Origin: a virus
Lineage: Duplodnaviria; Heunggongvirae; Uroviricota; Caudoviricetes
Reading direction: 5' to 3' (one strand)
Length of the DNA: 43,701 bases
IMG/VR virus record: IMGVR_UViG_2571042636_000008
Coordinates: 1-43,701 of that record
Shown: piece by piece, positions 2,598 through 13,578 of the stretch
Layout of the letters: the number at the start of each line of letters is the position of its first letter
Position numbering within the stretch: the first letter of the stretch is position 1
Notes under the pieces: generated by a model
The model's database searches: none
What the model saw: the letters and a program-made list of their open reading frames with translations, nothing else
What the model was told of the DNA's origin: nothing
Position numbers and translations under genes: made by a program

Positions 2598-2815
2598 GAT
2601 TCCACTCCATAGCGGCCGCTAAGCCGCCCAATAACACTGACAAATTTCACCAGACTGACACCCATCGGCTTTACCTTCTCGTAGTGCTTGCGAAGGATGG
2701 GGGGGCATACAGCGTTCCACTTCGGTTTAGGCTTTACGTTCATCGCTTTGGTTATCTCTTCTGCGCAGCGACGAGCCTGGGCGCGGAGAGCGTTTTCTTT
2801 TTCTTCTGGCGTCAT
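2594..2815 (-). CDS. Hypothetical small protein
   Basis: 73-aa ORF translationally coupled (4-nt overlaps) on both sides. Confidence 0.45.
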   Translation of the reverse strand: MTPEEKENALRAQARRCAEEITKAMNVKPKPKWNAVCPPILRKHYEKVKPMGVSLVKFVSVIGRLSGRYGVES

Positions 2816-3339
2816 GCAGCCTCCAGATTCCCGATCCGCTTTAACTCAGCCAGCGATACAGTCGTGATGATGTGTCGCGGGGTGATGTACGGACGCCAGA
2901 TAAACAGAAGCGAGCCTTTGGGGTTGCTCCGGCGCTTTCCTGTAACGGATGCCGGAACAAACTGAACACGGCCGCCGGTTATGAGTCTGAGTTCATCAGC
3001 TGATTGCATGGCTGAAATAAACCAGCCGGTAGAAATGTCAGCCGGTAACAACATCACTACGGCCTGAGACTGCGCCCGGGATTGCTCGGCTGCCTTTTCC
3101 ACCCACGGCCCAATATCGGAATAGGGCGGGTTACACCATATTGCCCCGTATGACGTCCATTCACTGTTCAGCGAGTCATCCAGCTCAGTGAGGTAGTGAG
3201 CGCATAGCGCATTACTCTCAGAGGCTGCAGCATCCAGCCAGAAGCCAAACTCGCGGTCGAGCGCATTGAAAATTTCAATCGGTGTTTGCCAGTAGTCACG
3301 TTCATTTTTTGGAGTTTTCGACCCGCCGAAATCAGTCAT
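2812..3339 (-). CDS. Phage DNA N6-adenine methyltransferase (Dam-like)
   Basis: DYWQTP...CNPPYS (NPPY catalytic motif); start moved to internal ATG at 3339 preceded by AGAGGTG RBS; the track ORF extends to 3378. Confidence 0.8.
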   Translation of the reverse strand: MTDFGGSKTPKNERDYWQTPIEIFNALDREFGFWLDAAASESNALCAHYLTELDDSLNSEWTSYGAIWCNPPYSDIGPWVEKAAEQSRAQSQAVVMLLPADISTGWFISAMQSADELRLITGGRVQFVPASVTGKRRSNPKGSLLFIWRPYITPRHIITTVSLAELKRIGNLEAA

Positions 3340-3367
3340 TGCGCACCTCTTTTCGTGTCTGCCTTTC

Positions 3368-3991
3368 TCATGCGGCATGGTCGTGGTTTTTTATGCTGGA
3401 AATTTCTTTCTCCAGCTCTTCCAGGAACTTTTTCACTTCGGACTCAATCTCATTTGCCAGTGCTTCGTCGAAGTGAATGCGCTTTTTGAAATAGGCGAGG
3501 TCTGGTGGTAGACGATCGTCGAAACTAACGAAATCACACCATTTACGCCCTGTGCACATCATCTGAGCGTGCATCTGCAGCAGGTACTGGCGTTTTGGCT
3601 CGCCAGTTTTTAAGGTCTCAAGATGAGTCCAGGTGTTGGGGCACTTAATTTCGATAAGCCCATCACCATTAACAAGCCCATCAGGGCTTGCTGCAAATCC
3701 TGGTATAGATGGGTGATCGATAAGCCCCACTTCAGTGATTTCGGCATCGAACTCATTCAGCGCATACATTTCGCGCGCTACCGGCTCGAGTTCTGTTCCG
3801 CGCATCATTGCGGCGTTGGAGAAACCTTCTTCAAGCTTCCCGGTGAGGCGCTGGCAAATCAGCTCGGCCATGTAGTTCTGTCGGCTTGCGGCATAGCCAG
3901 ACTTGGTTCTGGCCATGACGTCAGCAAGGCGGCTGGCTGTGACTTTTCCGCAGCGAGCGGCAAACCATTCTGGGGTGCGTTGTTCCATCAT
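3368..3991 (-). CDS. YqaJ-like viral recombination exonuclease
   Basis: RTPEWF...GKVTASR...EIKCP motifs typical of the YqaJ/lambda-Exo-like family; adjacent to RecT. Confidence 0.8.
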   Translation of the reverse strand: MMEQRTPEWFAARCGKVTASRLADVMARTKSGYAASRQNYMAELICQRLTGKLEEGFSNAAMMRGTELEPVAREMYALNEFDAEITEVGLIDHPSIPGFAASPDGLVNGDGLIEIKCPNTWTHLETLKTGEPKRQYLLQMHAQMMCTGRKWCDFVSFDDRLPPDLAYFKKRIHFDEALANEIESEVKKFLEELEKEISSIKNHDHAA

Positions 3992-4734
3992 TTATCCTCC
4001 GGCGCTGCGGCATCGACAGGTTCTGCGTTGTCGACTGCAAGGCTCATGTCATACATGCGACGCTTCTCAACCGCGCCGATAACCTGTTTCTCTTCTGCGC
4101 TTAACGCCACCCAGAATTCCTGATACTTAACAGTTCCAAGGCGTGCGGCAGACTCGCCTTTTGCGATCAGTTCCGGGCGGCGATCATCCGATTCATGCCC
4201 TACATGAACCTCTGTCGCACTCCCTTCAATGACACGTTCGGCTTCGTCCTGATCGAAGATGCCAGCAAACCCAAATGCGAGACGCGCACACTGGATCAGC
4301 GTCTTGTGACGAAGCATACGGGTAGGGTGGGACTGCCATGGCTGAGTGTTGCGTTTGCACTCTCCCATGTACTCAGTAACGATGGTCGGGTGTGTGCGGT
4401 CTTTCCGGTATATCTTGCAGGTACACGCGCCTTCTTCCTTGTCGTAGGCAAACTCCATTCCATCAAACTGAGGATGTTCGTTGATGATTCGAGCCCAGCC
4501 GTCAACGCCGACCACTGGAACAATTCCGCCTTTATCCGGGAATGCATAAATCTCCTTCGTCCACGGATTTAGTCCGTACTGGTTGGCGACGATCAGCAGT
4601 GCCGTGAACTGCTCATCAGTGACATTCCCACCCTTAAATGCTGTATTTTTCAGAGTGTTCATCAGGTCAGTTCCGGCATCCATGCCGAGGCGGGAGGCAA
4701 GCTTCCCGGCCATTGTAGAAAGTGCTGTGCTCAT
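3988..4734 (-). CDS. recT: RecT-family single-strand annealing recombinase
   Basis: RecT-like sequence; start chosen at internal ATG (4734) with GAGGGG RBS; the track ORF extends to 4785. Confidence 0.85.
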   Translation of the reverse strand: MSTALSTMAGKLASRLGMDAGTDLMNTLKNTAFKGGNVTDEQFTALLIVANQYGLNPWTKEIYAFPDKGGIVPVVGVDGWARIINEHPQFDGMEFAYDKEEGACTCKIYRKDRTHPTIVTEYMGECKRNTQPWQSHPTRMLRHKTLIQCARLAFGFAGIFDQDEAERVIEGSATEVHVGHESDDRRPELIAKGESAARLGTVKYQEFWVALSAEEKQVIGAVEKRRMYDMSLAVDNAEPVDAAAPEDK

Positions 4735-4750
4735 AGAATTCCCCTCAAAG

Positions 4751-5041
4751 TTAAAACGGGCAGCCGGTGCGGTGGTCCCAGTCATATTCCGCCTGGGCGT
4801 AAGCTACTGCCGAGATGAGATCGTTATATGCCTCGCCAGCTGCATCGCTGCGGAGGCCTTCGTATGGGCTTTTGTCCATCGGCACAGAGAAGCGGAACAG
4901 GCCTGACGGCTCTTTCGGCAGGGCGTCGATAATTTCCTGCGCCCGATCGTCAATCCACTTTTGCTTCTCTTCGGTTAGCGACTGTTCAGCCCATTTCCTT
5001 TCTTCGATAGCGTCGTATGCGCGGTATGCGTTCATAAGCAC
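4751..5041 (-). CDS. Hypothetical protein
   Basis: 96-aa ORF in the early-left operon between the coiled-coil gene and recT. Confidence 0.5.
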   Translation of the reverse strand: MLMNAYRAYDAIEERKWAEQSLTEEKQKWIDDRAQEIIDALPKEPSGLFRFSVPMDKSPYEGLRSDAAGEAYNDLISAVAYAQAEYDWDHRTGCPF

Positions 5042-8789: not shown

Positions 8790-9644
8790 ATGGCAAATAC
8801 TGCCGAAGTAATCAATTTCCCTGTGCCTGTCGTGGCACTACAGGAGCTGCGCGTGGCAGATCTCGACGATGGGTTTACGCGCATCGCCAATGAGCTCCTT
8901 GAAGCTGTCATGCGTGCGGGTCTGTCGCAGCATCAGCTTTTGGTGTTCATGGCTGTCATGCGCAAAACATACGGCTTCAACAAGAAATCTGACTGGGTCA
9001 GTAACGAGCAGCTCTCGGAGCTGACCGGCATTCTCCCGCATAAGTGCTCAGCTGCAAAAAGCGTCCTGGTTAAGCGGGGGATATTAACTCAAACCGGTCG
9101 TGTTATCGGGATTAATAAAACGGTCAGCGAATGGTCATCTTTACCCGTAAAAGGTAAAGAAAAAAAACCTTACCTGAAAAAGGTAACATTACCCGAATCA
9201 GGTAAGAAAAGTTTACCCGAATCAGGTAACGCCTATTACCCGAATCAGGTAAACACAAAAGACAAACATACAAAAGACAATAAAGACAATATTAATAACC
9301 CCCCTAAATCCCCCCGGGCGGTTTCGTTCGATGCGTTAGCTGTTCAGTTGCCTGACTGGCTTTCTGCAGAAATCTGGTCGTCATGGGTGGCATATCGTCG
9401 CGACCTGAAAAAGCCGATCAAGTCTCAGCAGACGGTCACCCAGGCTATCAACCTGCTGGACCGCTGCAGACTGAACGGTTACGCGCCCGAAGAAATTATC
9501 AACCGCAGCATCGCCAATGGCTGGCAAGGCCTGTTTGAGCCAAATGGTGCCAAGCCTCAACCAAGTCAACAGGTGCGAGTTGCCGAAAATTTCGCAGGGA
9601 AGGATTACGGGCAGACTGAAATCCCATCATGGGCGAGGGACTGA
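8790..9644 (+). CDS. Replication initiator, lambda O-like
   Basis: 284 aa in O position; in-gene iteron array followed by an A-rich stretch as in lambda ori. Confidence 0.75.
   Translation: MANTAEVINFPVPVVALQELRVADLDDGFTRIANELLEAVMRAGLSQHQLLVFMAVMRKTYGFNKKSDWVSNEQLSELTGILPHKCSAAKSVLVKRGILTQTGRVIGINKTVSEWSSLPVKGKEKKPYLKKVTLPESGKKSLPESGNAYYPNQVNTKDKHTKDNKDNINNPPKSPRAVSFDALAVQLPDWLSAEIWSSWVAYRRDLKKPIKSQQTVTQAINLLDRCRLNGYAPEEIINRSIANGWQGLFEPNGAKPQPSQQVRVAENFAGKDYGQTEIPSWARD
9141..9252. repeat. Replication-origin iterons (five ~17-bp TTACCCGAATCAGGTAA-type repeats) inside the O gene
   Basis: Copies at 9141-9157, 9170-9186, 9189-9205, 9213-9229, 9236-9252, followed by an A-rich tract 9253-9300. 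Confidence 0.75.
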
Positions 9645-9646
9645 TC

Positions 9647-10498
9647 ATGGAACTGGAAGAAAAAATCACTGCCATTGAGCGGATGCTTGATCAGCTGAGT
9701 AAGCCACCGGAAGACATCCCGAATTGCGAAGTGGTTATCGAGCGCGTCTGTTGCGAAAAGCATGGCGAATATGAGCAGCGCAAGCGGATCCTGACCAGCA
9801 GCATCATCAATCTGCCATCACCGCCGACACGCTGCCCGGGCTGCCTGGAAGACGAACTGAATTTTCTGAGGGATGAAAAGGTTCGCTGGGATAAGCGAGT
9901 ACGCCAGCAAACTGCAGAAAGGCTGCTTCGACAGCTGGACATACCAGAGCGCTTCTCCACGTGCACACTGGACAGCTACAAGCCTGTTGGGAAGGATTCT
10001 GAGCGAGCATTACGGGTCTGCCAGGCCTACGCATCGAAATGGACTGATCGCCTCCAGCAGGGCGGTGGGTTGGTTATGTGTGGCAAGCCTGGTACCGGTA
10101 AAAACCACCTTGCGCTGGCCATTGCCCGTCATGTGATTGAGCACCACCAAAGCTCAGTCATTTTCACGACGGCGCTGAAGATTGCCCGGGAGTTTAAATC
10201 GACCTGGTCAAAAACAGCCACGCGCACTGAGGATGAGGTGATCCGCTACTTCACGAAGCCAGACCTTCTGATTGTCGATGAGGTTGGTGTGCAGTTTGGC
10301 AGCGAAGCCGAGAAGATGATCATGTTTGAAATCATCAACACCCGCTACGAGCGCCTGAAGCCGACGATCCTGATCAGCAACCTGCCGAAGGATGAGCTGA
10401 CGCAGTTTATCGGCGAGCGCGTCATCGACCGCATGAACGACGGCGGCGGCTGCACGATTTCGTTTACCTGGGACAGCTATCGGGAGAACCGGTCATGA
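9647..10498 (+). CDS. DnaC/IstB-like AAA+ helicase loader
   Basis: Walker A GKPGTGKNHLA, Walker B LLIVDEVG; start at ATG 9647 (GAGGGA RBS) just after O stop. Confidence 0.85.
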   Translation: MELEEKITAIERMLDQLSKPPEDIPNCEVVIERVCCEKHGEYEQRKRILTSSIINLPSPPTRCPGCLEDELNFLRDEKVRWDKRVRQQTAERLLRQLDIPERFSTCTLDSYKPVGKDSERALRVCQAYASKWTDRLQQGGGLVMCGKPGTGKNHLALAIARHVIEHHQSSVIFTTALKIAREFKSTWSKTATRTEDEVIRYFTKPDLLIVDEVGVQFGSEAEKMIMFEIINTRYERLKPTILISNLPKDELTQFIGERVIDRMNDGGGCTISFTWDSYRENRS

Positions 10499-10788
10499 CA
10501 GGAAAAGACGCAATTCTGAACTACCTGAAAACGAATAAAACCTGCAGCTCTCCAGATGTCGCCGCGGCTTCCGGGATGACGCATACCTGCATCAACCAGG
10601 CTGCCAATATCCTGGCAAAGCAGGGGGTACTGGTAGCGGAAGCTCGGGTGTGGCGGACGGTTTACTACCGGCTGGCCACTGAAGAAGAAATTTCAGGCAG
10701 GAAGAGCACCAATCAGATTTTCAATGAGTGTCGGCAAAGCCCGGCGATGAAACGGGTACTGGCTGTTTACGGGAGAACATCAGCATGA
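10495..10788 (+). CDS. Hypothetical protein (nin-like region)
   Basis: 97-aa ORF, ATGA overlap with upstream gene. Confidence 0.5.
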   Translation: MTGKDAILNYLKTNKTCSSPDVAAASGMTHTCINQAANILAKQGVLVAEARVWRTVYYRLATEEEISGRKSTNQIFNECRQSPAMKRVLAVYGRTSA

Positions 10789-11231
10789 CTATCACATTAC
10801 AGGCAGTAAACGAGCTCATCGCCTCCCTTGAGAGCGCAGGCGAGCCGTCGATCAGAGAACAGAAGTTCCTGAAGCTGGCGAAAGAGTTCCGCATTTGCAG
10901 CGCTTCACTGGATGCCGCCATAAAAACCGGGAATATGCTGGCAGACCAAAATGCTCAGCTGGCTGCGGAGAATGTGGCGCTGAAGAATTTCTGCAAAAAC
11001 GCTGCATTTGATGCCGACTATGAAGCCGAACTTGGCATGGAAAGGGGCGGGTTTACTGACGCTCTCAACAATATCGAAACCCCCGCCACCGATCGCATCA
11101 TGGCCGAAGCCGAGGCGCGCGGAGTTGAGAAGGCCATCGCTCACCTGGATAAAAAGTTCAGCAATATCGGCGTGCAGATCATGAATTTGCAGTGGCTGGC
11201 AGACTCGCTGCGCGAGGGGGCCGGGAAATGA
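10785..11231 (+). CDS. Hypothetical protein
   Basis: Start set at ATG 10785 (MTITLQAV...), 4-nt overlap with previous stop. Confidence 0.5.
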   Translation: MTITLQAVNELIASLESAGEPSIREQKFLKLAKEFRICSASLDAAIKTGNMLADQNAQLAAENVALKNFCKNAAFDADYEAELGMERGGFTDALNNIETPATDRIMAEAEARGVEKAIAHLDKKFSNIGVQIMNLQWLADSLREGAGK

Positions 11232-11491
11232 GCATCGCTACTTATCTCAATACCGGTTTAGCCATTCTTGGATGGGCATACATCATGGTTAAAACAGGCC
11301 AGTGGATTACCAAAAATGCTCTGAGGCAGTGGGACAAGCGTCGTAAGGAATCTCGCCGCCAGAAAGCTGTGAATGAGTTTTATGACGCCTTTGAGCTTAA
11401 CAGCCTGGAACCTGGCTCTACCGTTCGCCTGGCCACTAAAGGCGACCTGACAATCATGATGTTCCGCAGCGAGGGAAAGGCCAATGACTGA
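11228..11491 (+). CDS. Hypothetical small membrane protein
   Basis: Start at ATG 11228 (MSIATYLNTGLAILGWAYIMV...), one hydrophobic helix; ATGA overlap. Confidence 0.45.
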   Translation: MSIATYLNTGLAILGWAYIMVKTGQWITKNALRQWDKRRKESRRQKAVNEFYDAFELNSLEPGSTVRLATKGDLTIMMFRSEGKAND

Positions 11492-11990
11492 TATCACCGA
11501 ACTGGCGCAGCGTATGAAGACTGCTGCTGAGAAACTTGACGCAGACCAATGGCAGACACGCAAGGGTTTTAGCGGTATTGAGGTAATCGTCAAAGGTAGC
11601 CTTGAAAAGGGACATGGCTGTGTGTCTTTCCAGCCTGTTGCTGCCGACATGGCTGACACAAAAACAGCAAGAGCGATTGCGTTGTTTAGTCCTGCCAACG
11701 TCCTCGCGCTGGTAGAGGCGCTGGAGAAGGCGCAGAAGCAAACGACTGAAAGCGAAAACCGCGTTCGCAAGCAGAATCGCCACATCTGTGAGCTGTTCGA
11801 CGATAACACAGCACTGCGCCAGCGCATCGCCGAGCTGGAGTCCCGCACCGTGAAGCTGCCAAAGCTCAAAATGCTCGAAGACTATCTCGCCGAGGTAGCC
11901 ATTGAAGAGAGAAAACAGATTTTGGTCGGCGTGAAACTGGAGTTTCATCGTGCGCTGGCCGCCGCTGGCATCAAGGTGGAGGCTGAGTAG
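11484..11990 (+). CDS. Ead/Ea22-like protein
   Basis: 168 aa, GAGGGAAAGG RBS; resembles Ead/Ea22-like family from memory. Confidence 0.55.
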   Translation: MTDITELAQRMKTAAEKLDADQWQTRKGFSGIEVIVKGSLEKGHGCVSFQPVAADMADTKTARAIALFSPANVLALVEALEKAQKQTTESENRVRKQNRHICELFDDNTALRQRIAELESRTVKLPKLKMLEDYLAEVAIEERKQILVGVKLEFHRALAAAGIKVEAE

Positions 11991-12338
11991 ATGAAACCTG
12001 CAAAATTTACACCCATAGTCGTCGCGCCAGTAACTTTTGAAACAGTACGTGAGCGACTTTCGTACCTGGAAGGCTTGAATGCCAAAGGTGCTGGCACCGC
12101 AGTAAAGTCGCAGCAATTTGAAATAGCGTGTCTGCGTGAATTGCTGGTACGCCTGGAGTCCCGCGCCGTCACCGTGAAGCTGCCAGACATCATGCCACCA
12201 GAAGCGGCACCGGCTCATTACTGGGGCTCCGGTGAGTCAATGGCTTATGCGGATGGATACAACAAATCGGCTGCGGATTTAAAGACCTCTTTTGCTCAGG
12301 CCTGCTCTTCTGCTGGCGTTAACGTGGAGTTTGAATAA
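11991..12338 (+). CDS. Hypothetical protein sharing a short module with the preceding Ead/Ea22-like gene
   Basis: AAGGTGGAGG RBS; shares LESR(A)VTVKLP segment and about 27 bp of near-identical DNA with 11484..11990. Confidence 0.5.
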   Translation: MKPAKFTPIVVAPVTFETVRERLSYLEGLNAKGAGTAVKSQQFEIACLRELLVRLESRAVTVKLPDIMPPEAAPAHYWGSGESMAYADGYNKSAADLKTSFAQACSSAGVNVEFE

Positions 12339-12802
12339 TGGTCATCTCACCAATAACGCTGAAAGCGGCGCAGGAATTTATCGCCCAGCATCACCGGCAT
12401 AACAAACCGCCGCGCGGCCACAAATTCAGTATCGGGCTGAAAAACGCCGCGGGCGAACTAATCGGCGTTGCGACGGCCGGTCGCCCGGTAGCTCGTCACT
12501 TTGACGACGGCCTAACTCTGGAGGTAAATCGCACCTGCACCACTGGCGAGCGTAACGCTAACAGCGCTCTGTACGGAGCAATCTGGCGCGCTGCCCGCGC
12601 AATGGGCTATCTCCGCTGCATTACATACACCCAGGCTGATGAGTCCGGCGCGTCACTGCGTGCTGCTGGTTTCGTGCGCGTCAAAGAGTTACCGGCTCGC
12701 CCTGGCTGGGCTGCGTCAAGCCTGGCATTGAAAGATAAGCGTGACCCTGTTGGTAATGGCGGTGTGCCTCGTGTTTTGTGGGAAATCAGGAGAATGAAAT
12801 GA
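12338..12802 (+). CDS. Hypothetical protein, possibly GNAT-fold acetyltransferase-like
   Basis: 154 aa; strand/helix pattern with WRAARAMGY reminiscent of GNAT motif A (weak, unverified). Confidence 0.5.
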   Translation: MVISPITLKAAQEFIAQHHRHNKPPRGHKFSIGLKNAAGELIGVATAGRPVARHFDDGLTLEVNRTCTTGERNANSALYGAIWRAARAMGYLRCITYTQADESGASLRAAGFVRVKELPARPGWAASSLALKDKRDPVGNGGVPRVLWEIRRMK

Positions 12803-13578
12803 ATCACACACTGAGCGATTCACAGTTGGAAGAAATGATTAAATCGGCTGTTAATTCATTCGGCCCGCTACCGCCTGACGAAAAATTCTCACTACTTATT
12901 TCTGCGCTGCGTGAGCTACAGGAACGCCGCAAGGCCGCAATGGAGAGCAAGCCGGTGATACTTTACCGACAGGTAAATCCGGTGAACGGAATGAAGACGT
13001 ATTGGGCTGAGTTAGACCCTGAAGAATTTAGACATTTAAAAAAATACGCTGATGAAAATGCTGAATTCATGACGCTCTATCGCCACTCGCAGCCAGCGCC
13101 GGAATATCCGGAAACACTGCCATGCCCCGTATTGCTGGAGCCAGGGTTGCGCTTTGGTAAAGGCATTAAAACCAGCACCATGCTTGCCGCACTGTCGCGC
13201 AGGGCCGTATACGAATCAGACTTGGCGGCACTATCACCGGAAGAGAGGGTGGAGTTTCAGGCGGGAATTGAGGACGTAAAAGCGCTGATTGCGCAGCCAG
13301 TGCCGGTAGCTCCTGTTTGCACCTGCCCCAGCGGCGATGGTTCGCTGCGCTGGCCTTGTCCGGTACATCCTGGCAGATCTCCGGAAAATCCGGGTTGTTG
13401 GTGCCTCACATGCCGTCCTGTGGCCATTAACGATATGCGCTTTGTGGTGTGCCCTGATTGCGGGAATAAGAGATGCCCACGGGCAAATGACCATAGAAAC
13501 GCCTGCACGGGAAGTAATGAGACCGGCCAGGAAGGAAGCGCATATCCGGCCGCACCGCAGGAGGTGAAGGGTGAGTGA
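12799..13578 (+). CDS. Hypothetical protein with C-terminal Cys-rich (putative zinc-binding) domain
   Basis: Start ATG 12799 with AGGAG RBS; C-terminus CTCPSGDGSLRWPCPVHP...CWCLTCRP...CPDCGNKRCP. Confidence 0.55.
   Translation: MNHTLSDSQLEEMIKSAVNSFGPLPPDEKFSLLISALRELQERRKAAMESKPVILYRQVNPVNGMKTYWAELDPEEFRHLKKYADENAEFMTLYRHSQPAPEYPETLPCPVLLEPGLRFGKGIKTSTMLAALSRRAVYESDLAALSPEERVEFQAGIEDVKALIAQPVPVAPVCTCPSGDGSLRWPCPVHPGRSPENPGCWCLTCRPVAINDMRFVVCPDCGNKRCPRANDHRNACTGSNETGQEGSAYPAAPQEVKGE

Follow-up and report, generated by a model that had tools for sequence, protein, structure and literature searches.

Two adjacent genes and the segment that they share

The window analysed here, the whole 43,701-nucleotide (nt) stretch of the IMG/VR virus record IMGVR_UViG_2571042636_000008, carries two consecutive plus-strand genes, gene 1 (11484-11990, 168 amino acids (aa)) and gene 2 (11991-12338, 115 aa), which abut directly and share a short segment of DNA. 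This segment is probably the 5' junction island of a sub-genic cassette arrangement in Ead/Ea22-like genes of Klebsiella-type temperate phages. Both genes are in the open reading frame (ORF) list, and their coordinates in a preliminary description of the window, made from the sequence alone, are correct. The same description had called the genes adjacent Ead/Ea22-like paralogs, a name that holds for gene 1, which matches the Pfam family Ead_Ea22 (PF13935) over residues 9-143 with 30.6 bits against a gathering threshold of 27 (expect value (E) 5.9e-7) and has 4282 homologues at E<=0.001, mostly from Klebsiella, that carry PF13935 and the NCBI name 'ead/Ea22-like family protein'. The name does not extend to gene 2, which matches no Pfam family at E<=0.1 and no PHROG, does not reach the Ead_Ea22 threshold, and resembles gene 1 only in the joint, the tail, and the end scaffold. 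A BLASTP comparison of the two proteins aligns only the C-terminal ~60 aa, at 31% identity (E=4e-4).

The two genes were also said to share a near-identical segment of ~27 base pairs (bp), with A or G at one position, encoding ESR(T/A)VKLP. The similarity is real and exceeds chance, but it is gapped and not contiguous: the 27-mer occurs only once in the window, at 11835-11861, even when three mismatches are allowed, and the second copy (copy 2; 12153-12185, plus strand) is an interrupted segment made up of CTGGAGTCCCGC, GCCGTC and ACCGTGAAGCTGCCA in turn, which measures 33 bp against the 27 bp of copy 1 and has its 6-bp insert at 12165-12170. The peptides actually encoded are LESRTVKLP in copy 1 and LESRAVTVKLP in copy 2. 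Read with a gap, the copies share 12 and 15 identical bases across the 6-bp indel; read without one, they share 17 nt with one mismatch (repeat D9) and 16 exact nt (repeat D4) in a register shifted by six, the longest exact run being 16 bp. Copy 1 is the canonical short form of the 5' junction island, which spans 11817-11861 on the plus strand, encodes (Q)RIAELESRTVKLP, and contains the 27-mer, and copy 2 is a long form of the same island.

Formal alignment detects significant similarity between the copies. The gapped match has a local alignment score of 21.5, a value reached by none of 2000 codon shuffles of gene 2 (mean 9.4, standard deviation 1.1, maximum 15.0), and the top score of gene 1 against 243 other window chunks is 12.5. 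A chance resemblance between two unrelated genes, for which only the short length of the match speaks, is of negligible probability given these scores, a shuffle control that expects 0.00 window matches to the motif, and the recurrence of the segment in hundreds of phage contigs.

Two conserved islands bracket a hypervariable tail

Homologue searches revealed a repeated architecture that consists of a variable head, a nearly invariant (R)IAELESRTV(TV)KLP joint, a hypervariable tail, and a nearly invariant AAGIK(V/W)E(A/D/V)E end. IMG/VR was scanned with patterns that allow every synonymous codon of LESRTV(TV)KLP, and all counts, clusters, and profiles derived from it apply to the matches listed, which are taxonomically narrow. 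These scans gave at least 223 matches in at least 183 unique ±150-nt contexts. The island DNA is almost always CTGGAGTCCCGCACCGT(CACCGT)GAAGCTGCC, with the last proline codon alone varying freely, and major-base frequencies of 74-100% extend from approximately position -14 to the penultimate base of the motif, compared with 30-50% outside, which delimits a 5' island of ~41-47 bp. The exact 27-mer of copy 1 has at least 50 IMG/VR matches, and the canonical long form has at least 27+24 occurrences. The short (TV) and long (TVTV) joints differ by a 6-bp tandem unit, ACCGT(C/G), and account for 61 and 105 of the retrieved proteins, respectively, which suggests either recurrent slippage or two old allelic forms.

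The 3' island has the consensus GCCGCTGGCATCAAGGTGGAGGCTGAG-TGATG, with a major-base frequency of 72-100% over the last ~27 nt through the next ATG and a return to background thereafter. It encodes AAGIKVEAE and the stop codon, and it holds the Shine-Dalgarno sequence of the next gene. In gene 1, the 3' boundary island ALAAAGIKVEAE, followed by TAG and then the ATG of gene 2, lies at 11952-11993 (plus strand), as located by the stop-anchored profile and by megablast matches at query 471-510, and a Shine-Dalgarno-like AAGGTGGAGG at 11973-11982 sits 8 nt upstream of the gene 2 ATG. Between the two islands, tails measure 28-140 aa (mostly 34-61 aa, median 40 aa) and are unrelated in sequence between types. 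No paper with the motif strings was found in the searched literature, and the same literature yielded no description of two DNA islands bracketing a tail with near-free assortment.

It is unlikely that this pattern reflects constraint on the protein only, with the motif acting as a required helix cap and strand and the DNA identity stemming from common descent and codon bias. The motif is indeed nearly invariant in protein across 240 retrieved homologues, it occupies a defined structural place where the long helix ends and the tail is about to begin, and a related RIAKLES, encoded by different DNA, occupies the corresponding position in lambda Ea22. However, the third codon positions of the motif, left free in the scans, are 91-99% invariant, whereas the codon usage of the window would give 0.13-0.50 per codon (13-50%), with a product of 2.4e-4 over eight codons. 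Moreover, the flanks in the same genes are unrelated, and so whole-gene common descent cannot explain the pattern.

Conservation at synonymous sites would also be expected of a cis-acting element, in which the island is kept as a recombinase target, an RNA structure, or an internal start, and the short form does possess a GGAG 9 nt upstream of an in-frame GTG. This explanation is nevertheless very improbable. The RNA fold of the island is no better than that of shuffles (z=0.14), no promoter-like sites were found in 10400-13000, terminator-like sites in the same interval are at or below expectation, and the 9-nt GGAG-GTG spacing becomes 15 nt in the long form, which is just as common, meaning that the internal start is not conserved. 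Furthermore, the repeats are direct and no dedicated recombinase gene lies beside the gene pair.

Heads, tails, and downstream genes assort almost independently

The 178 unique proteins listed fall into 47 head clusters and 47 tail clusters that form 100 combinations, with 24 of the 47 tail clusters occurring with at least two head clusters. The adjusted mutual information is 0.06 between head and tail and 0.08 between tail and downstream gene, against a permutation null with a mean of 0.002 and a maximum of 0.05, indicating that head, tail, and downstream gene assort almost independently. Such a combinatorial assortment near linkage equilibrium requires crossovers at or very near the islands, which further argues against constraint on the protein as the only cause. 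The points of divergence lie at the island edges. For 11 pairs with the same head (>=93% over 280 nt) and unrelated tails, divergence begins between -6 and +3 of the 3' end of the motif, and where the tail is the same but the heads are unrelated (209 pairs) it begins mostly between -26 and +1 of the motif start.

Natural chimeras in both directions join parts of the two window genes. P0103, encoded at locus L224, carries a G1-type head and the G2 tail in one fused gene, aligns to window positions 11704-11861 at 81% and then to 12153-12958 at 90.6%, and lies in the same synteny as the window (O, DnaC-like, further genes, the fused gene, and a 154-aa Mom-like gene). The reciprocal chimera, a G2 head with the G1 tail, is present in P0076 and P0091 (L221). 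Gene 1 has its tail from tail cluster T6, which sits on five different head clusters, and the stretch 11810-11993 (island, tail, and island) recurs at 98.4% identity in phage Chronis gp52 behind a different head. The gene 2 tail (DIMPPEAAPAHYW...GVNVEFE) is 85-92% identical on many full-size Ead_Ea22 proteins, and the gene 2 head was found with at least five other tails.

The Klebsiella phage GZ7 (L001), the closest phage, is 97% identical to the window across the replication genes, yet matches it in only four patches within gene 1, namely 11484-11510, 11710-11738, 11817-11860 (44 bp at 100% identity with unrelated flanks), and 11952-11993. Megablast matches in phages and Escherichia coli prophages fall in the same patches, at query 204-256, 326-380, and 471-510. 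The first GZ7 patch, patch A (11484-11510, plus strand), is the gene start encoding MTDITELAQ, whose 27 bp are 100% identical in GZ7 and L221 and are followed by unrelated sequence. Patch B (LFSPANVLALVEALEKAQ; 11687-11742, plus strand) is an internal mosaic joint of the head that corresponds to the megablast matches at query 204-256, found in many Klebsiella phages and E. coli prophages at 94-100% identity, with patches also against L001, L002, and L221.

The modular shuffling that had been read from the shared segment is thus borne out by the presence of the island on unrelated heads and tails, by the edge breakpoints, by the reciprocal chimeras, and by the GZ7 patches. The accompanying suggestion of a potential recombination site also gains support, in that comparison across related phages points to a putative family-wide in-frame joint.

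Two proteins depart from the simple arrangement. An ORF at 6660-7502 of L021 contains both forms of the motif, with a G1-like head, ELESRTVKLP, a ~90-aa module, LESRTVTVKLP, and a G2-type tail in series, from which it follows that the joint can concatenate modules as well as swap them. In P0111, the motif is split by an insertion (LESRTVT|...|STVTVKLP).

With respect to their origin, the window copies appear from their sequences to be separate draws from a family-wide pool and not copies of each other, because each is closest to the family-wide canonical form and not to its neighbour: copy 1 is the canonical short form, and copy 2 matches the canonical long form except at position 12165, where it has G in place of A. 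Gene 2 would therefore carry a slightly decayed long-form island and gene 1 a canonical, apparently exchange-competent one. A local origin, in which the copies are the remnant of a tandem duplication or the product of gene conversion between neighbours with the remainder having diverged, can be argued from the adjacency of the genes on one strand, from their common ...AG(I/V)x VE x E ending, from the BLASTP similarity over the C-terminal part, and from three independent contexts (the window, L221-L223, and L060) in which a short G2-type gene follows a full-size Ead-like one. Against it, the heads are unrelated, the tails are alike only in the terminal motif, both copies resemble their counterparts in other phages more closely than they resemble each other (at least 50 exact matches for the short form and a single base of difference for the long form), and the G2 head and G2 tail are each found separately with other partners; a local origin is accordingly considered highly unlikely.

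Parts of the gene 1 and gene 2 proteins

The AlphaFold2 model of gene 1 (mean predicted local distance difference test (pLDDT) score of 76, with ~94-96 over residues 91-110) comprises a helix at residues 2-17, strands at 23-51, a helix at 70-120, a coil at 121-130 that contains the motif, a tail helix at 131-160, and the conserved end, and fits the three-part architecture of Ea22. The model of gene 2 (pLDDT 73) lacks an N-terminal domain and is laid out as a short two-helix head unrelated to that of gene 1, followed by the joint, the tail, and a variant end (SAGVNVEFE*). Its only strands are at residues 59-62 (AVTV) and 111-114 (NVEF), which in the model presumably pair and close the tail. The idea that the joint forms such a clasp is half supported by the models, which place a strand at the TVTV form of gene 2 and a coil without a strand at the TV form of gene 1.

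The variable tail cassette of gene 1 (KLKMLEDYLAEVAIEERKQILVGVKLEFHR...) occupies 11862-11951 on the plus strand. It contains an internal GVKLEF (GGCGTGAAACTGGAGTTT) at 11928-11945, the DNA of which is 83% identical to that of the terminal GVNVEF of gene 2 at 12315-12332, and this internal motif is followed by 14 further codons that end in the canonical AAGIKVEAE. Judged by sequence, the gene 1 tail seems to include an earlier gene terminus that was joined to a second 3' island by read-through or fusion. A comparable double end is present in P0045 (AGVTVEIADDGIKVEAE). The end of gene 2 is the variant SSAGVNVEFE, whose TAA overlaps the ATG of the following Mom-like gene (12309-12340, plus strand), and the VNVEFE ending recurs in the family.

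A short G2-type gene lies directly 3' of a full-size Ead-like gene at 11991-12338 of the window, at 2501-2818 of L221, and at 1844-1530 (minus strand) of L060. These are all the independent contexts of this type that were found; in each, the short gene starts at or beside the conserved 3' island of the preceding gene, and the two neighbouring genes carry different tails. The full-size Ead-like gene and the short G2-type gene may work as a pair. The proteins P0001 and P0121, which are exactly those of gene 2 and gene 1, respectively, are labelled Escherichia coli at NCBI and occur on 115-120 contigs, but among the complete E. coli genomes of the collection none contains >=80% of the two-gene region, and almost all of the relatives come from Klebsiella, which leaves the host of the prophage ambiguous.

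A proposed mechanism of exchange

In the mechanism that we infer, each gene is composed of a head (N-terminal domain and coiled coil), the ~41-47-bp island encoding RIAELESRTV(TV)KLP, a hypervariable tail, and a second island of ~30 bp, and the islands serve as crossover sites. During co-infection or the infection of a lysogen, homologous recombination would start in the islands, catalysed either by the phage Bet/RecT-type annealing protein and exonuclease or by host RecA, and the exchange would replace a tail, a head, or a downstream gene in frame. The 5' island would form the last turns of the coiled-coil helix and a short strand or linker ending in proline, and could thereby act as a neutral adapter that accepts any tail on any head. 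The 3' island would keep translational coupling to whichever gene comes next.

The window genome encodes both phage enzymes on the minus strand. The single-strand annealing protein (3988-4785) matches phrog_252 (Bet-like ssDNA annealing protein) at E=9.5e-95, and the RecE-like recombination exonuclease (3368-3991) matches the exonuclease phrog_149 at E=7.4e-48 and the RecE-like phrog_434 at E=1.4e-29. Phage recombinases of the Rad52-like type generate mosaics by acting on homologies that are short or diverged, and the minimal pairing segment has been given as 23-27 bp for Red-beta and 31-34 bp for RecA (PMC3945230). With partners that have unrelated flanks, copy 1 has exact runs of up to 53 bp (median 31 bp) in common, and the run is at least 23 bp long for 105 of 158 such partners. 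The 16 exact bp shared by copies 1 and 2 fall below the Red-beta minimum, and exchange is therefore expected mainly between phages or prophages and not between the neighbouring genes. By the same token, deletion between gene 1 and gene 2 would be unlikely and the tandem pair would be fairly stable.

Several points weigh against this proposal. The exact runs of copy 2 with unrelated-flank partners do not exceed 22 bp and, like the match between the two copies, lie below the quoted minimal pairing segments. All evidence for exchange, the breakpoints included, is comparative, and the strong synonymous conservation could reflect selection on the DNA or RNA itself. The models bear out the adapter role only in part, given the strand in gene 2 and the coil in gene 1. 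Finally, the exact island is narrowly distributed: it is present on only six contigs of species-representative genomes (Klebsiella grimontii, three Kluyvera species, and Entomohabitans), as well as in many Klebsiella phages and some E. coli prophages, and the IMG/VR matches are of similarly narrow taxonomy.

Comparison with Ea22 and other known systems

The Ea22 genes of lambda and Stx phages have been described as mosaic, with C-terminal domains that are unrelated between phages and a (K/R)GE tripeptide at the C-terminus that is conserved but of 'unknown significance' (PMC10834534, PMC7093339). The pro-lysogenic effect and tetrameric assembly of Ea22 are experimental results from lambda and Stx phages only (PMC7093339, PMC10834534), and a nuclear magnetic resonance study of lambda Ea22 identified residues 102-111 as an unassignable linker (PMC10834534). 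Like gene 1, lambda Ea22 and the Stx-phage variants V1-V3 possess an N-terminal segment, a coiled coil with the Ead_Ea22 signature, and a C-terminal domain that varies by phage. Lambda Ea22 also has ...KRIAKLESNEVR... (KRIAKLES) at the end of its coiled coil and a terminal DAGIRIKGE, which correspond to RIAELES...AAGIKVEAE here. However, a direct BLASTP comparison with lambda Ea22 gives no significant similarity (E=0.15), and most tails are far shorter than the lambda C-terminal domain. The positions of the genes differ as well, with the lambda gene located between exo and xis in the early-left region, the window pair in a nin-like region, and the L221 pair proximal to int.

Mosaicism of this kind is the subject of the modular theory of phage evolution, reportedly due to Susskind and Botstein. 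The boundary sequences of HK620 are presumably the counterpart of the joints described here among lambdoid mosaics. Both consist of short islands of high DNA identity with unrelated flanks, and one of the islands described here lies at a gene boundary. Relaxed recombination by Rad52-like proteins (PMC3945230) is likewise compatible with the window, where a Bet/RecT-type annealing protein and an exonuclease are encoded and where the copy 1 island is longer than the Red-beta minimum for most partners. In contrast to the lambdoid boundary sequences, one of the joints is internal to a coding sequence, falling at a domain boundary where the frame must hold, and the swapped unit is very small, at ~100-200 bp.

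Polymorphic toxins exchange C-terminal cassettes after a demarcation motif, as in CdiA-CT after VENN and Rhs after PxxxxDPxGL. The arrangement described here is similar in that a conserved motif precedes a highly polymorphic C-terminus that is exchanged between loci, but it differs in that a second conserved island closes the cassette and no secretion apparatus was seen. A toxin-immunity cassette was considered and rejected, as the adjusted mutual information between tail and downstream gene is low and 20 of the 24 multi-member tail types have at least two types of downstream gene. No toxin domain was recognised: three representative tails scanned alone gave no Pfam match, Pfam searches with long or unusual tails were uninformative, and the full-length proteins scanned matched only Ead_Ea22 and generic coiled-coil families.

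A shufflon and a diversity-generating retroelement were also rejected, given that the repeats are direct, the tails are unrelated and of variable length, and the neighbours are DUF4752 and Mom-like genes, although no search was aimed at a reverse transcriptase. A sequence search of solved structures returned only a coiled-coil M protein at E=0.4 for gene 1 and no match for gene 2. Foldseek comparisons of both AlphaFold2 models with the PDB gave no match at E<=0.001, the best being E>1, and so the folds provide no functional lead.

Implications for Ead/Ea22-like genes

As an instance of phage gene mosaicism, the locus is clear-cut yet ordinary; it fits the published mosaic nature of Ea22 and reveals no new kind of system. 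It is, however, an unusually sharp and quantifiable example of 'conserved linker' mosaicism inside a gene. The pattern suggests a possible explanation for the difference in Ea22 C-terminal domains between phages. It also suggests one for the conserved C-terminal end of Ea22, which here overlaps a gene-boundary island with the ribosome-binding site of the next gene. For annotation, the label 'ead/Ea22-like' hides many different C-terminal effectors, and for the study of recombination the islands offer a naturally occurring substrate on which the short-homology recombination carried out by phage annealing proteins can be measured.

A more speculative idea, which is put forward tentatively and considered rather unlikely, is that Ead/Ea22-like proteins are a dedicated 'display scaffold', in which a conserved oligomeric coiled coil presents a small hypervariable C-terminal peptide or domain and the two islands are maintained so that the tail can be swapped without regard to head or downstream gene, with each tail specific for a different host or rival-phage target and the G2-type gene acting as a head-less carrier of an extra tail. 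If so, the targets could be, for example, a defence system or a lysis-lysogeny regulator, and the high tail diversity, which at 47 types in 178 proteins is not saturated, would stem from an arms race.

Genomic context of the gene pair

The window represents a lambdoid temperate phage or prophage of the Klebsiella type. Its best matches are the Klebsiella phages GZ7, RCIP0098, and RothC, with only 35-43% coverage of a 12-kb query each, at 94-97% identity. The gene pair lies on the plus strand in a tightly packed early-right operon, in a nin-like region that lies downstream of two replication genes, one O-like (8790-9644) and one DnaC-like (9629-10498). These are followed by a MarR/ren-like ORF (10495-10788), a coiled-coil ORF of 167 aa (10728-11231, phrog_492), and a DUF4752 gene (11192-11491) immediately before gene 1. 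The coiled-coil ORF has phrog_368 in common with gene 1, without the TVKLP joint, and matches GZ7 only in short patches at 11079-11106 and 11208-11234, which makes it look like another sub-genic mosaic. Long antisense ORFs on the minus strand (11454-12218, 11258-11869, and 11945-12193) have no PHROG match and were treated as non-coding.

Downstream of gene 2 lies the Mom-like gene (12338-12802), which matches phrog_1384 at E=1.2e-39 and the Pfam family Mom at 24.6 bits, slightly below the cut-off of 27.1. The gene 2 stop codon and the ATG of the Mom-like gene overlap, and in L224 the same 154-aa gene is located 3' of the fused gene. In the early-left arm, a DNA methyltransferase-like gene (2812-3378, minus strand; phrog_111, E=2.6e-73) adjoins the recombination genes.

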